64,000 nucleotides of DNA from Patescibacteria group bacterium (GCA_040388985.1 JAZKAU010000001.1:59359-123358); one strand, 5' to 3'; numbered from the stretch's first letter, positions 13,297 through 16,194 are shown. The notes: a model not told the origin generated them from the letters alone. Numbers and translations are program-made.

Positions 13297-16194
13297 ATGG
13301 CAAAAGAATCCTACGACCACAAGAACATAGACGAGAAATGGCAAGCGCGTTGGCGTGAGGACAATACGTACCGCACCGAGAGCGATGCAGGTAAGGAGAA
13401 GGCATACGTACTCGACATGTTCCCGTATCCGTCCGGTGAAGGGCTTCACGTCGGACACCCCAAAGGCTATATTGCGACCGACGTCTATTCCAGACATCAG
13501 CGCATGCAAGGGAAGTCCGTACTGCATCCGATGGGTTGGGATGCCTTCGGCTTACCCGCTGAGAACTACGCCCTCAAAAACAAGGTGCACCCACGACTGG
13601 CCGTCGAGAAGAACATCGCCACGTTCAAGGAGCAGCTTCAGAAGATCGGCTTCGACTACGATTGGTCGCGCGAGATAAACACGACCGATCCCGAGTACTA
13701 TCACTGGACGCAGTGGATATTCCTGAAGCTTTACGAGCATGGCCTGGCCTTCCGCTCGGAAGAGCCCATAAACTGGTGCCCGTCGTGCATGACTGGACTT
13801 GCCAACGAAGACCTCGACCAGGGCCGCTGCGAGCGCTGCGATACGCCGGTCGTAAAGAAGCAGCTTCCCCAATGGGTACTCAAGATAACCGATTACGCTG
13901 ATAGGCTTCTCGCGGACCTCGAACATCTGCCGAAGTGGCCTGAGCACATCAAGGAGTCGCAGCGCAATTGGATAGGACGTTCAGAGGGCGTCGAGCTGGA
14001 TTTCACTATATCTTTCAAGAAGAATCCTGCAGACAACGACTGGCGCGACGCAGACGGGAAGCCCGCGCATTTTACGATATTCACGACCCGGCCCGATACG
14101 CTCTTTGGCGTAACCTATGTCGTCATCGCTCCCGAGCACCCGTGGCTCATGCAGGCGCTACGCGAATCCCATGACGTGCTCGAGAACGGATCGGAGATAC
14201 GGAATTACCTTGACGCGACTGCCGCGAAATCAGAGATCGAACGCACCGCTGAAGGTAAGGAGAAGACAGGCGTAAAGCTCGAGGGTATTTCCGTAGTCAA
14301 TCCGATAAATGGCGAAGAGATTCCCGTTTACGTCGCTGACTATGTGCTCGGCAATTACGGTACCGGCGCCGTCATGGCCGTGCCCGGTCACGATGAGCGG
14401 GACTTCGCCTTCGCTACGAAGTTCGGCCTGGAGGTCAAGCAGGTGATAGCGCCACCCTTCAAGCAGACCGTCGAGCCGGGCATCTTCCGTGAGAACGAGC
14501 CCGTCTTCGTGAACGACGGCATCATATGCATCATCAAACACTGGAGCGAAGACACGTACCTGGCGCTCAAGTGGAAGAAAGTTGCCTGGGGGACATTACT
14601 GACCGGCGTCGTAGACGAGGGCCTTTCTGCCGAGGAAACAGTGACTAAGGAAATACGGGAAGAGACCGGCTATCTGAATCCGAAGATAGTTCGCAAGCTG
14701 GGCGCCGTCGACGGACTTTTCTATCACGTGCCTAAGCAGGTAAACAAGCACGTACACGGCCACATATTCTACGTAGAACTCGAGAATGCGGATCGCGAAG
14801 GGATAGCCGACGAGGAGAACGAGAAACATGACATCGTCTGGCTGACTTCCGAGGAGCTGAAAGATTTTCTTACGCCTGACACCCATAAGTATGCGCTCGA
14901 CGTATTCACCCACGGGTATCAACCCTATCTCGGCGAAGGTTCTCTTATGGATTCTGGAGCGTTTACCGGCCGGGAAAGCAATGAGGCTATGGCGGATCTT
15001 GCCGCTCTAGCTGGCGGGCGGAGCGTTACCAACTATCGCCTGCGCGATTGGGTATTCTCACGCCAGCGGTATTGGGGAGAACCTATTCCGATGCTGTACT
15101 GCGACGCCTGCGGCGTCGTCCCCGTCCCCTATGAGAATCTTCCCGTACGACTCCCCGAGGTTGAGCACTATGAACCGACCGGCACGGGGGAGTCGCCCCT
15201 GGCTGCTATTACCGACTGGGTGAATACCACCTGTCCGAACTGTAAGGGACCTGCAAAGCGCGAGACCAACACCATGCCGCAGTGGGCAGGGTCTTCCTGG
15301 TATTATCTGCGGTTTATGGATCCGCATAACGACAATGCGCTTGTCTCACCGGAGGATGAGAAGTATTGGAGTCCGGTGGACGTATATGTGGGAGGAGCCG
15401 AGCACGCTACGCGCCATCTTATCTATGCCCGCTTCTGGCACAAATTCCTCTACGACATCAAAGTGGCCACGACTATCGAACCGTTCACCGAGCTGCATTC
15501 CGTCGGCCTCGTTATCGCTGAAGACGGCCGCAAGATGAGCAAGCGTTTCGGAAACGTTATCAATCCGGATGATGTGGTGGAGAGATTCGGCGCTGATGCC
15601 TTTCGCGTGTACGAGATGTTCATGGGCCCGTTCGAGAATACCATCGCCTGGAACACGAGTAGTCTTGTGGGCGCTCGCAGATTCCTGGATCGCATCTACA
15701 CCTTCAGGAATAAGATAGTACCTGAGGAGATTGCCGAGCTCAGCCGTTCGCTCCATAAGACTATACAGAAGGTGAGCGACGACATTCCTGCCTTCCGCTT
15801 CAACACAGCCATAAGCGCCATGATGATCCTGCTGAACGACATGGAGGCTGCCGGGAAGATGGGTAATGACCAGTGGAAGGCATTCTTGCGCCTCCTTGCG
15901 CCTTTTGCGCCACACCTCTGCGAAGAACTGTGGCAGCTTGCAGGCGGCACGGGTTCCATACATCTGGCCACTTGGCCGGAAGCTAACCCTGCGCTTCTCG
16001 TCGAGGACACGGTGGTCATCGGCGTCCAGGTAGCAGGGAAGAGGCGCGGAGAAATCACCATCTCACCCTCAGCCAGCGAGGAGGAGGCCGTCCAGGCGGC
16101 CCTCCTGGACCCGGGAGTCGCAAAGGCGCTCGGGGGAGCGAAGCCGGGTCAGATAGTCTACCGAGAGGGCCGGATATTGAACCTGATTCCTTAG
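13297..16194 (+). CDS. leuS: Leucyl-tRNA synthetase with an inserted NUDIX domain
   Basis: HIGH motif (GEGLHVGHP), editing-domain segment (GTGAVMAVPGHDERDFAFA), KMSKR motif; about 135 extra aa at nt ~14511-14930 with Nudix box LLTGVVDEGLSAEETVTKEIREETGY. Confidence 0.9.
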   Translation: MAKESYDHKNIDEKWQARWREDNTYRTESDAGKEKAYVLDMFPYPSGEGLHVGHPKGYIATDVYSRHQRMQGKSVLHPMGWDAFGLPAENYALKNKVHPRLAVEKNIATFKEQLQKIGFDYDWSREINTTDPEYYHWTQWIFLKLYEHGLAFRSEEPINWCPSCMTGLANEDLDQGRCERCDTPVVKKQLPQWVLKITDYADRLLADLEHLPKWPEHIKESQRNWIGRSEGVELDFTISFKKNPADNDWRDADGKPAHFTIFTTRPDTLFGVTYVVIAPEHPWLMQALRESHDVLENGSEIRNYLDATAAKSEIERTAEGKEKTGVKLEGISVVNPINGEEIPVYVADYVLGNYGTGAVMAVPGHDERDFAFATKFGLEVKQVIAPPFKQTVEPGIFRENEPVFVNDGIICIIKHWSEDTYLALKWKKVAWGTLLTGVVDEGLSAEETVTKEIREETGYLNPKIVRKLGAVDGLFYHVPKQVNKHVHGHIFYVELENADREGIADEENEKHDIVWLTSEELKDFLTPDTHKYALDVFTHGYQPYLGEGSLMDSGAFTGRESNEAMADLAALAGGRSVTNYRLRDWVFSRQRYWGEPIPMLYCDACGVVPVPYENLPVRLPEVEHYEPTGTGESPLAAITDWVNTTCPNCKGPAKRETNTMPQWAGSSWYYLRFMDPHNDNALVSPEDEKYWSPVDVYVGGAEHATRHLIYARFWHKFLYDIKVATTIEPFTELHSVGLVIAEDGRKMSKRFGNVINPDDVVERFGADAFRVYEMFMGPFENTIAWNTSSLVGARRFLDRIYTFRNKIVPEEIAELSRSLHKTIQKVSDDIPAFRFNTAISAMMILLNDMEAAGKMGNDQWKAFLRLLAPFAPHLCEELWQLAGGTGSIHLATWPEANPALLVEDTVVIGVQVAGKRRGEITISPSASEEEAVQAALLDPGVAKALGGAKPGQIVYREGRILNLIP

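Follow-up and report, generated by a model that had tools for sequence, protein, structure and literature searches.

A Nudix hydrolase domain embedded in the CP1 editing domain of a patescibacterial leucyl-tRNA synthetase

What is a complete Nudix hydrolase domain doing inside an aminoacyl-tRNA synthetase? The question is raised by a stretch of 64,000 nucleotides from a Patescibacteria group bacterium (GCA_040388985.1, JAZKAU010000001.1:59359-123358; the whole stretch is referred to as the window), whose leuS gene (13297..16194, plus strand, as are all features of this gene given below) encodes a leucyl-tRNA synthetase (LeuRS) of 965 residues with an additional domain inserted into its editing domain CP1. 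Judged from sequence comparisons, the insert is a complete domain of one distinct Nudix subfamily whose members also exist as free-standing proteins of ~160 residues. With moderate confidence we interpret it as an autonomous, catalytically competent pyrophosphohydrolase that has been grafted into a CP1 surface loop of an otherwise normal LeuRS.

The host protein is a LeuRS of the bacterial type. The NCBIfam model TIGR00396 (leuS_bact) matches with 973.6 bits (cutoff 548.4), its match being split into two stretches by the insert, and Pfam assigns a class I catalytic domain, the editing domain PF13603 and an anticodon-binding domain, with a NUDIX domain in between. A phmmer comparison with the LeuRS of Thermus yields an E-value of 1e-213. 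The full-length AlphaFold2 model, built on a 100-sequence alignment, reaches a predicted local distance difference test score (pLDDT) of 90.2 and a predicted template modelling score (pTM) of 0.81; its best Foldseek matches are the LeuRS of E. coli and T. thermophilus (template modelling score TMt 0.79-0.85, with 0.85 for E. coli). The gene forms a single, uninterrupted open reading frame (ORF), its product has an exact database match, and the length of 965 residues stated in the original prediction is confirmed.

The motifs required for aminoacylation and editing were located by a motif scan. The synthetic site comprises the HIGH motif (HVGH, residues 51-54, 13447..13458) and the KMSKS loop (KMSKR, residues 746-750, 15532..15546); H51, G53 and H54 as well as K746, M747, S748 and K749 are invariant in the 100-sequence alignment. 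The N-terminal four-fifths of CP1 (residues ~223-385, 13963..14451, from PF13603 and motifs) contain the T-rich motif TTRPDT (residues 263-268, 14083-14100), GTG (residues 355-357) and HDERD (residues 365-369, 14389-14403), the latter with D366 and D369 invariant in the same alignment. Across the family of insert-bearing LeuRS, HVGH, KMSK, TTRPDT, GTG and HDERD are invariant or almost so. By these motifs, both the synthetic and the editing site appear intact and the host enzyme looks functional; because the motifs are present and conserved, the Nudix domain would not be a substitute for a decayed editing site. The leucine-specific domain of the E. coli and Thermus enzymes (~55 residues) is absent, residues 742 and 746 of the query being aligned with residues 580 and 637 of T. 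thermophilus LeuRS. Its relatives likewise have no leucine-specific domain before KMSKS (window 15520-15546), such that Thermus residues ~580-637 are without counterpart.

The boundaries of the insert follow from insert-less relatives, which place the Nudix domain at residues 386-541 (~155 residues, 14452..14919), including a family-specific N-terminal extension (PPFKQTVEPG...). In the alignment with two close relatives that carry no insert (P0055 and P0099), the short string 'E-GG' stands in place of residues 386-541. Compared with T. thermophilus LeuRS, residues 4-397 of the query correspond to residues 2-375 and residues 544-742 to residues 377-580; no solved LeuRS structure in this comparison spans query residues 398-543. 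The PF13603 match (residues 223-390, 184 bits) covers only positions 1-146 of the 185 positions of the profile. The C-terminal remainder of CP1 and its return linker are found beyond the insert (residues 542-580, 14920..15036, beginning PYLGEGSLMDSGAFTG), where they align with T. thermophilus LeuRS from residue 377 onward and with insert-less relatives. Since PF13603 stops at position 146 of 185 and the alignment to the Thermus enzyme breaks at residues 375/377, the insert lies inside CP1, in a loop between T. thermophilus residues 375 and 377 and ~40 residues ahead of the return of CP1 to the catalytic core, and not between the editing domain and the core as initially proposed. Two further details require correction. 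The Nudix block had been placed at 14511-14930, which is one base out of frame and contains 5 stop codons (the block in frame is 14512-14931). Likewise, the protein is indeed oversized, and its excess over the nearest insert-less relatives (795-796 residues) is ~170 residues rather than ~135.

The assignment of the insert to the Nudix fold is supported by several comparisons. Within the whole protein, PF00293 matches residues 430-526 with 44.5 bits (E 2e-11, cutoff 21.1), and the excised segment scores 48.6 bits against the same threshold. The AlphaFold2 model of the isolated domain (pLDDT 95.2, pTM 0.88) has the strand-helix-strand order and the alpha/beta/alpha fold of Nudix proteins; within the full-length model, the insert has a pLDDT of 93-97. 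Searching the domain against the PDB with Foldseek results in 502 matches at E<=1e-3, and the best 50 of the 502 are all Nudix proteins with a probability of 1.00. The top structural match is an uncharacterised protein of E. faecalis (2AZW, TMq 0.74), followed by MutT1, NudI, the Ap6A hydrolase Ndx1, the Ap4A hydrolase aq_158, RppH and CT771, at 13-23% identity. The matches that an insert-family profile makes to PDB sequences are weak, the best being AvrM14 (E 5.6e-9), followed by 2AZW and the lupin Ap4A hydrolase. On the basis of the predicted structure, we therefore regard the Nudix fold as certain and a close characterised relative as lacking; the central claim of the original prediction, a complete NUDIX domain inserted in LeuRS, holds.

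Whether the domain has retained its catalytic residues can be assessed from its conservation across 97 aligned insert-bearing LeuRS. The Nudix box GVVDEGLSAEETVTKEIREETGY (residues 437-459, 14605..14673, by translation) agrees with the consensus GX5EX7REUXEEXGU at 21 of 23 positions: G1, G6, E16 (E452), E19 (E455), E20 (E456), G22 and Y23 are in place, whereas position 7 is a leucine (L443, consensus E) and position 15 a lysine (K451, consensus R). The box had been described as canonical, which is accurate for the three glutamates but not for positions 7 and 15. G437, E452 and E456 are found in 97/97 sequences, E455 in 93/97 (the remainder being Q) and G458 in 92/97. The original prediction would have been refuted by a normal lineage-specific insertion devoid of the catalytic glutamates; the insertion is lineage-wide, but the catalytic glutamates of the REUXEE motif are retained (97/97, 93/97 and 97/97, respectively). 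Outside the box, K480 and W515 are likewise present in 97/97 sequences and W426 in 90/97. The loop downstream of the box (14722..14745, from the alignment) contains Y476, 17 residues after Y459, as well as H477, P479, K480 and N483 (87/97), and appears in the AlphaFold2 model as a hairpin turn that joins strands 462-477 and 482-495. The alignment also identifies a conserved acidic residue, E507 (14815..14817; E in 92/97, D in 5/97), which is located at a helix (505-508) in the model and is a candidate additional metal ligand or general base. K480, W515 and E507 can be read from the alignment as signature residues of a distinct Nudix subfamily.

The mean pairwise identity across the 97 proteins is 36% for the inserts and 67% for the host cores. 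Against this background, the alignment indicates that the metal-binding glutamates are under strong purifying selection; because conservation is strong at the metal- and phosphate-binding residues despite an insert identity of 36%, we read the pattern as retained catalysis. The non-catalytic Nudix protein CFIm25 has lost the second and fourth glutamate of its box (PMC2425470). No such loss is seen here, the corresponding residues being retained in the window protein and in 93-97 of the 97 relatives. Family-wide, box position 7 is E in 38/97 sequences and position 15 is R in 38/97. We note that both positions (14623-14625 and 14647-14649) co-vary, the combinations being E/R (37), Q/A (19), M/K, F/K or L/K (24) and Q/M (7). 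This looks as though a structural pair or salt bridge has been replaced by other packing pairs.

The architecture is not restricted to a single genome. A protein identical to the window LeuRS, encoded on a contig of 187 kb, is deposited at NCBI as MES2225251.1 ('MAG: class I tRNA ligase family protein [Patescibacteria group bacterium]'). A search with the whole protein shows that 117 of the 120 best LeuRS relatives carry PF00293; these relatives bear the names Paceibacterota, Parcubacteria, Minisyncoccia or Moraniibacteriota and originate from assemblies of NCBI, JGI, ENA and Logan. When one genome was scanned for each GTDB species, a relative was found in at least 243 species genomes, a lower bound because only two peptide patterns were used. 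Nearly all of the 80 listed titles refer to candidate groups of Patescibacteria, namely Sungbacteria, Adlerbacteria, Kaiserbacteria, Azambacteria, Nomurabacteria, Taylorbacteria, Moranbacteria, Berkelbacteria or Saccharibacteria, the three others being two 'uncultured Gammaproteobacteria' and one 'Woesearchaeota archaeon'; of the 80 loci fetched, 75 have the box within a LeuRS-type frame. An exhaustive HMMER search of 1.84 billion representatives results in 276 clusters at E<=1e-3, and the best 150 of these consist mostly of LeuRS or LeuRS fragments as well as ~30 complete free-standing proteins (154-200 residues). A word-indexed search with the insert alone had returned a single match and misleadingly implied rarity; the family was exposed by the whole-protein and HMMER searches. 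Taken from these sequence data, the fusion is shared across Patescibacteria of the Paceibacteria/Parcubacteria type.

The same data bear on the possibility of an artefact, that is, a chimeric assembly, a pseudogene with a frameshift or a wrongly called ORF. Only the unusual length of the protein and the GC (guanine plus cytosine) content of the insert (0.51-0.53, slightly below the 0.55-0.60 of its flanks, with no sharp break at the junctions) would speak for it. Set against these are the single open frame, the identical NCBI protein, the same architecture in 117 of the 120 best relatives, in at least 243 species and in more than 100 independent assemblies, the LeuRS-type frame around the box at 75 of 80 loci and the confident model of the whole protein (pLDDT 90.2). 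We consider the probability of an artefact to be negligible; neither the frameshift nor the chimera that the original prediction had named as a potential pitfall is found.

Many of these LeuRS are named merely 'class I tRNA ligase family protein' by NCBI (P0002, P0022, P0051, P0058, P0066 and others), and two (P0011 and P0102) are named 'alpha/beta fold hydrolase' in databases. The vague names are likely a consequence of the inserts, which disturb automatic naming.

How tightly is the Nudix domain tied to its host? The closest insert-less relatives are P0055 (795 residues, core 73% identical) and P0099 (796 residues, core 70% identical), which share the synteny from YchF to leuS with the window and from which the insert is cleanly missing. 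The YchF GTPase (window 9515-10597), a few genes upstream of leuS, is conserved in the insert-less relatives (window 9515-13260 compared with loci L081-L083). The genes between YchF and leuS differ, being a DUF5671 membrane protein in the window and 180-residue membrane proteins in the relatives. The latter also dispose of a split-gene scenario, in which the Nudix domain would be encoded by an adjacent upstream gene in insert-less relatives: the upstream 180-residue ORFs of P0055 and P0099 encode membrane proteins.

Conversely, the domain is found without LeuRS. Free-standing homologues (P0135, P0139, P0152, P0154 and others) align over the entire insert, including the N-terminal extension 'EPxFxQTxEPG'. 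Given such free homologues and the clean loss in close relatives, the module is, as far as these comparisons tell, separable. The closest free-standing homologue, P0135, is located on L084 (GCA_023245955.1, JAHFJI010000005.1, 2482-11389) in a cluster that consists of a MetRS-like gene, TatD, the P0135 Nudix gene, a YfbR-like gene resembling HD 5'-nucleotidases, and a second Nudix gene, a distant relative of the insert family (hhalign probability 87%). An insert-less LeuRS of 823 residues begins 5 nt past this second Nudix gene. A consistent leuS neighbourhood of the free homologues was also considered and discarded, as proximity is seen once (L084) and not in L085, L086 or L088. On L088 (276-896 and 6001-6573), the free homologue P0139 is found a few kb from a Ser_hydrolase gene (PF06821) and from a ProRS with an editing domain; this Ser_hydrolase belongs to the family that is inserted into LeuRS in other relatives.

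A further group of relatives are stand-alone proteins of 273-287 residues (P0175, P0223 and P0255) that combine a decayed piece of CP1 with a Nudix domain of this subfamily, its box being canonical. In these mini-CP1 proteins TTRPDT is changed to ERPELIYGAT and HDERD to HNQED, and GTG is lost; P0175 aligns with LeuRS residues 332-545 (E 4e-34). P0175 (L089:3063-3884) and P0255 (L092:5001-5864 and L093:4704-5567) are part of a conserved operon that also encodes a radical-SAM protein of variant type, a CYTH protein and a member of the cytidylate kinase family, the latter being a (d)CMP kinase at the P0255 loci; the P0175 locus also contains a nucleoside deoxyribosyltransferase-like gene. The contigs of P0223 (L090 and L091) are too short to show neighbours, whereas P0255 is present on many large contigs of up to 0.2-1 Mb. 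By sequence and context, these proteins look like excised modules whose selected function resides in the Nudix part, in a setting of nucleotide metabolism. A role in anti-phage defence was set aside: PADLOC returns no match for the insert or for the mini-CP1 protein with its Nudix domain.

Other relatives have acquired more domains rather than fewer. In longer LeuRS (1123-1558 residues) a second insertion hot spot is found at the N-terminal boundary of CP1 (LeuRS residues ~225-245), occupied by one or two additional Nudix domains that belong to the same subfamily, by one or two alpha/beta-hydrolase domains, which are of the Ser_hydrolase family, or by a Ham1/ITPase domain. The additional Nudix copies score 150-217 bits against a hidden Markov model (HMM) of the insert family, and a single LeuRS harbors up to three Nudix domains in total, a tandem pair at the N-terminal boundary of CP1 plus the one at the conserved site. 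Examples of such multi-hydrolase proteins are P0024, P0029, P0030, P0033, P0044, P0050, P0057, P0068, P0081 and P0083 (1290-1558 residues), with P0030 also carrying a HAD domain after the conserved Nudix domain; P0010, P0011 and P0102 as well as P0090 and P0112 are further cases.

The similarities of insert and host do not run in parallel. Among 144 LeuRS with a single Nudix domain, L001, P0015 and P0003 included, the identities of core and insert are not positively correlated (Spearman -0.18); part of this negative trend is selection bias, as two sequence sets chosen by different criteria are combined, and the locus set alone gives a correlation of +0.32. The inserts of the best-relative LeuRS proteins fall into at least 10 clusters (52% identity within and 31% between clusters), which do not track the similarity of the cores. 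Individual triplets illustrate the discordance: the query and L001 share 52% identity in the core and 77% in the insert, the query and P0015 share 75% and 25%, and P0015 and L001 share 54% and 26%, respectively. The triplets suggest a cassette-like replacement of the Nudix domain, a transfer of the leuS body, or extreme rate heterogeneity.

With respect to the substrate, diadenosine polyphosphates (ApnA) and aminoacyl-adenylates had both been suggested. The former remain plausible from the sequence, the +17 position being aromatic in 91/97 sequences; for the latter, nothing was found in support. The bond of an aminoacyl-adenylate is an acyl-phosphate and not a diphosphate, its hydrolysis is atypical for Nudix enzymes, and aminoacyl-AMP is handled by enzymes of the HIT family rather than by Nudix proteins. 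Since aminoacyl-AMP has no diphosphate bond, its hydrolysis by the Nudix domain is unlikely. Other substrate classes can be compared by their motifs. Nudix enzymes of the ADP-ribose type reportedly carry a proline ~15-16 residues after the box; the insert has L474 and F475 at +15 and +16, and its sole nearby proline, P479, is at +20 and present in 52/97 sequences. ADP-ribose pyrophosphatases are characterised by a proline that is conserved in the loop following the box (PMC5389931), and the corresponding model TIGR00052 (YffH/AdpP) scores 21.7 bits on the window LeuRS (cutoff 79.6). NADH diphosphatases (NudC) are marked by SQPWPFPxS downstream of the box (PMC5389931), which is absent from the insert sequence; NF001299 scores 19.1 bits (cutoff 158). 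The NCBIfam sub-models of RppH (PRK00714) score 14.5-17.6 bits, with cutoffs of 116-259.

One feature hints at ApnA. The 'X-loop' is located ~17 residues downstream of the Nudix box (PMC5389931, citing Dunn et al. 1999), and a Tyr or Phe at about this distance, stacking on adenine, is common to Nudix Ap4A hydrolases (PMC2425470). In the insert family the +17 column (Y476 in the window protein) is occupied by Y (57), F (32), W (2) or C (6), that is, by Tyr or Phe in 89/97 sequences. We take the aromatic residue as a hint, a correlate of ApnA hydrolysis and no proof. Ap4A hydrolases are found by profile (lupin 1F3Y, E 7.8e-8; aq_158, E 1.3e-6), and Ap4A and Ap6A hydrolases, RppH bound to Ap4A, and the diadenosine polyphosphatase MutT1/Rv2985 are among the top structural neighbours; the Ap4A-type structures 1VC8, 3I7U and 4MPO have TM scores of 0.59-0.64, with MutT1, NudI and 2AZW being equal or higher. 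Because the +17 position is aromatic, the motifs for ADP-ribose and NADH are absent, and the RppH, NudC and AdpP models remain below their cutoffs, an ApnA-type or related nucleotide substrate is favoured, with low confidence.

According to the interpretation that we favour, the module would catalyze the Mg2+-dependent hydrolysis of a nucleoside-diphosphate-X compound, most likely an adenine dinucleoside polyphosphate of the Ap4A family or a related non-canonical nucleotide. It would stand outside the chemistry of aminoacylation and editing and serve nucleotide 'house-cleaning', using the constitutively expressed LeuRS of a streamlined genome as its scaffold. The theme of house-cleaning recurs in the relatives, in which Nudix copies, Ham1/ITPase, HAD and alpha/beta-hydrolase domains are inserted around CP1. 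Three observations weigh against an autonomous hydrolase of this kind. Among the best 150 clusters, the sole fusion partner of the subfamily is LeuRS/CP1, often with 2-3 copies, which favours a link of some kind that is specific to LeuRS over pure hitch-hiking. Box positions 7 and 15 are off consensus, both here (L and K) and in ~60% of the family; the usual Glu-Arg pair is therefore missing, and the activity could be weakened. No single enzyme type stands out among the structural neighbours (13-23% identity), MutT1, NudI and CDP-Chase ranking level with Ap4A hydrolases, so that the call of the substrate is weak.

A LeuRS-specific link could consist in a coupling in cis, in which the domain clears the Ap4A and Ap3A by-products that arise from leucyl-adenylate (Leu-AMP) and ATP or ADP, or opens a new route of pre-transfer proofreading. 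The exclusive fusion to LeuRS/CP1 among the best 150 representative clusters, the presence of up to three copies per LeuRS and the aromatic +17 residue typical of Ap4A hydrolases would fit such a coupling, as would the locus of P0135, where the cluster with the second Nudix gene ends directly upstream of an insert-less leuS; the pairing of LysRS, Ap4A and NUDT2 in eukaryotes offers a functional precedent. We nevertheless consider the coupling doubtful. In close relatives the insert is gone and nothing else is visibly altered, the other free homologues are not near leuS, the mini-CP1 proteins reside in nucleotide-metabolism operons without a synthetase, and aminoacyl-AMP, with no diphosphate bond, is a substrate of the HIT family. 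LeuRS is also not known to be a prominent producer of Ap4A. Somewhat less probable still, in our view, is that the Nudix fold is non-catalytic and serves to sense a ligand or to bind tRNA or a protein, similar to CFIm25 or the NUDT9H domain of TRPM2, through which a nucleotide modulates LeuRS. This would account for the degenerate box positions 7 and 15, here and in most of the family, with their correlated swaps (E/R, Q/A, hydrophobic/K), and for an insert that evolves much faster than its host (36% versus 67% identity). It is difficult to reconcile with REUXEE glutamates, G1, G22 and E507 that are invariant or nearly so, when CFIm25 has lost the second and fourth glutamate, and with a conservation centred on the metal- and phosphate-binding positions, as catalysis predicts.

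The best sequence-profile match in the PDB, the mRNA-decapping effector AvrM14 (E 5.6e-9), brings up yet another possibility, namely a pyrophosphohydrolase or decapping enzyme for RNA 5' ends of the RppH, NudC or AvrM14 type, which LeuRS would position at the 5' ends of tRNA or other RNA (5'-ppp, NAD or Np4A caps). E. coli RppH is among the Foldseek matches (TM 0.60-0.67), and CP1 adjoins the acceptor end of the tRNA in the LeuRS complexes 2BYT and 4AQ7. By structure, however, AvrM14 ranks only 47th, the NCBIfam models of RppH reach 13-18 bits against cutoffs of 116-259, and the 5' ends of mature tRNA are monophosphates generated by RNase P; as the free homologues and the operons of relatives suggest a role in small-molecule nucleotide metabolism, we regard a function at RNA ends as quite improbable. 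A more far-reaching picture is that CP1 in Paceibacteria constitutes a docking platform for a hydrolase 'factory' (1-3 Nudix domains plus Ham1/ITPase, HAD or alpha/beta-hydrolase) that works with the synthetase, the Nudix cassette being exchanged between leuS genes by recombination. We assign a low probability to it. If true, the charging of tRNA-Leu might be coupled to the clearance of ApnA alarmones or of damaged nucleotides, the Nudix domain might tune editing or charging through a nucleotide that it binds or cleaves, as a new proofreading or signalling step, and an essential translation enzyme would have a new route to gain and swap catalytic functions.

The window harbors further genes of related families. 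Two stand-alone Nudix genes named in the original prediction are both real: one encodes 164 residues (546..1040, minus strand, Pfam 54.8 bits), the other 128 residues (58896..59282, plus strand, Pfam 67.9 bits). Compared with the insert, the former scores 20.8 bits in BLASTP and has no match to the insert-family HMM, and the latter scores 26.6 bits in BLASTP and 21.9 bits against the HMM, which gives 214 for the insert itself; we therefore dismissed the idea that the insert is a recent duplicate of either gene. An island of low GC content (44000-52700, GC 0.42-0.43 versus ~0.55) contains genes for a free-standing HAD hydrolase (45078-45755, plus strand), a Ham1/ITPase (47117-47662, minus strand), an APH-like kinase (47665-48642, minus strand) and a resolvase (52093-52677, plus strand). 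The island has the look of a horizontal acquisition. Its HAD and Ham1 genes belong to the same families that are inserted in LeuRS relatives.

Few enzymes have been studied as thoroughly as aminoacyl-tRNA synthetases, which classically gain new functions through accessory domains. Full-text literature searches found no paper on a fusion of LeuRS and Nudix, a 2017 review of the Nudix clan mentions neither tRNA nor synthetase, and no NCBIfam model for LeuRS with a Nudix domain is among the matches to the window LeuRS. The parts are familiar and the Pfam hits are already public; no description appears to exist of the architecture, of its breadth or of the variants with several hydrolases. The fusion is of interest since it has been conserved in a large radiation of uncultivated bacteria with reduced genomes, marks out a distinct Nudix subfamily by K480, W515 and E507, and would explain why many essential LeuRS genes are named 'class I tRNA ligase family protein'. 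Should the domain be coupled to LeuRS, it would connect the charging of tRNA or proofreading with the metabolism of nucleotides or alarmones in a new way. Should it be a passenger only, it would illustrate how house-cleaning enzymes are accommodated in permissive loops of essential proteins when a genome is streamlined, and a CP1 loop that tolerates insertions of 150 to more than 500 residues would be useful for protein engineering.

The relation to known systems can be stated component by component. With the bacterial LeuRS of E. coli (4AQ7/4ARC) and T. thermophilus (1H3N/2BYT), the window enzyme shares the class Ia core with HIGH and KMSKS, a CP1 domain with T-rich motif and conserved Asp, and the anticodon-binding and C-terminal domains; it differs by the 155-residue Nudix domain in a CP1 loop and by the missing leucine-specific domain. 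A curated precedent for a class Ia synthetase with an extra enzyme domain is known by name (NF040702, 'isoleucine--tRNA ligase, N-acetyltransferase domain-containing'), which involves another synthetase and another enzyme family (IleRS and GNAT). The adenylate chemistry of a synthetase can make Ap4A, which is removed by a Nudix enzyme in the axis of LysRS, Ap4A and NUDT2; there, the partners are separate proteins and LysRS is a class II enzyme, whereas in the window the putative hydrolase is fused to LeuRS. CFIm25 likewise places a Nudix fold within a larger RNA-processing machine and binds Ap4A (PMC2425470); it is without the second and fourth glutamate and does not hydrolyze (PMC2425470), whereas the insert family keeps these glutamates in 93-97 of 97 sequences. 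With small Nudix enzymes, namely 2AZW, the Ap4A hydrolase of A. aeolicus (3I7U), the Ap6A hydrolase Ndx1 of T. thermophilus (1VC8), MutT1 of M. smegmatis, NudI, E. coli RppH and AvrM14 of flax rust, the insert shares the alpha/beta/alpha fold, the loop-helix-loop of the box and the REUXEE motif, and with Ap4A hydrolases also the aromatic residue at +17. It is set apart from all of them by low similarity (13-23% identity, TM 0.5-0.74), by its 'EPxFxQTxEPG' extension, by K480, W515, N483, E507 and the non-canonical box positions 7 and 15, and by being embedded in another enzyme.

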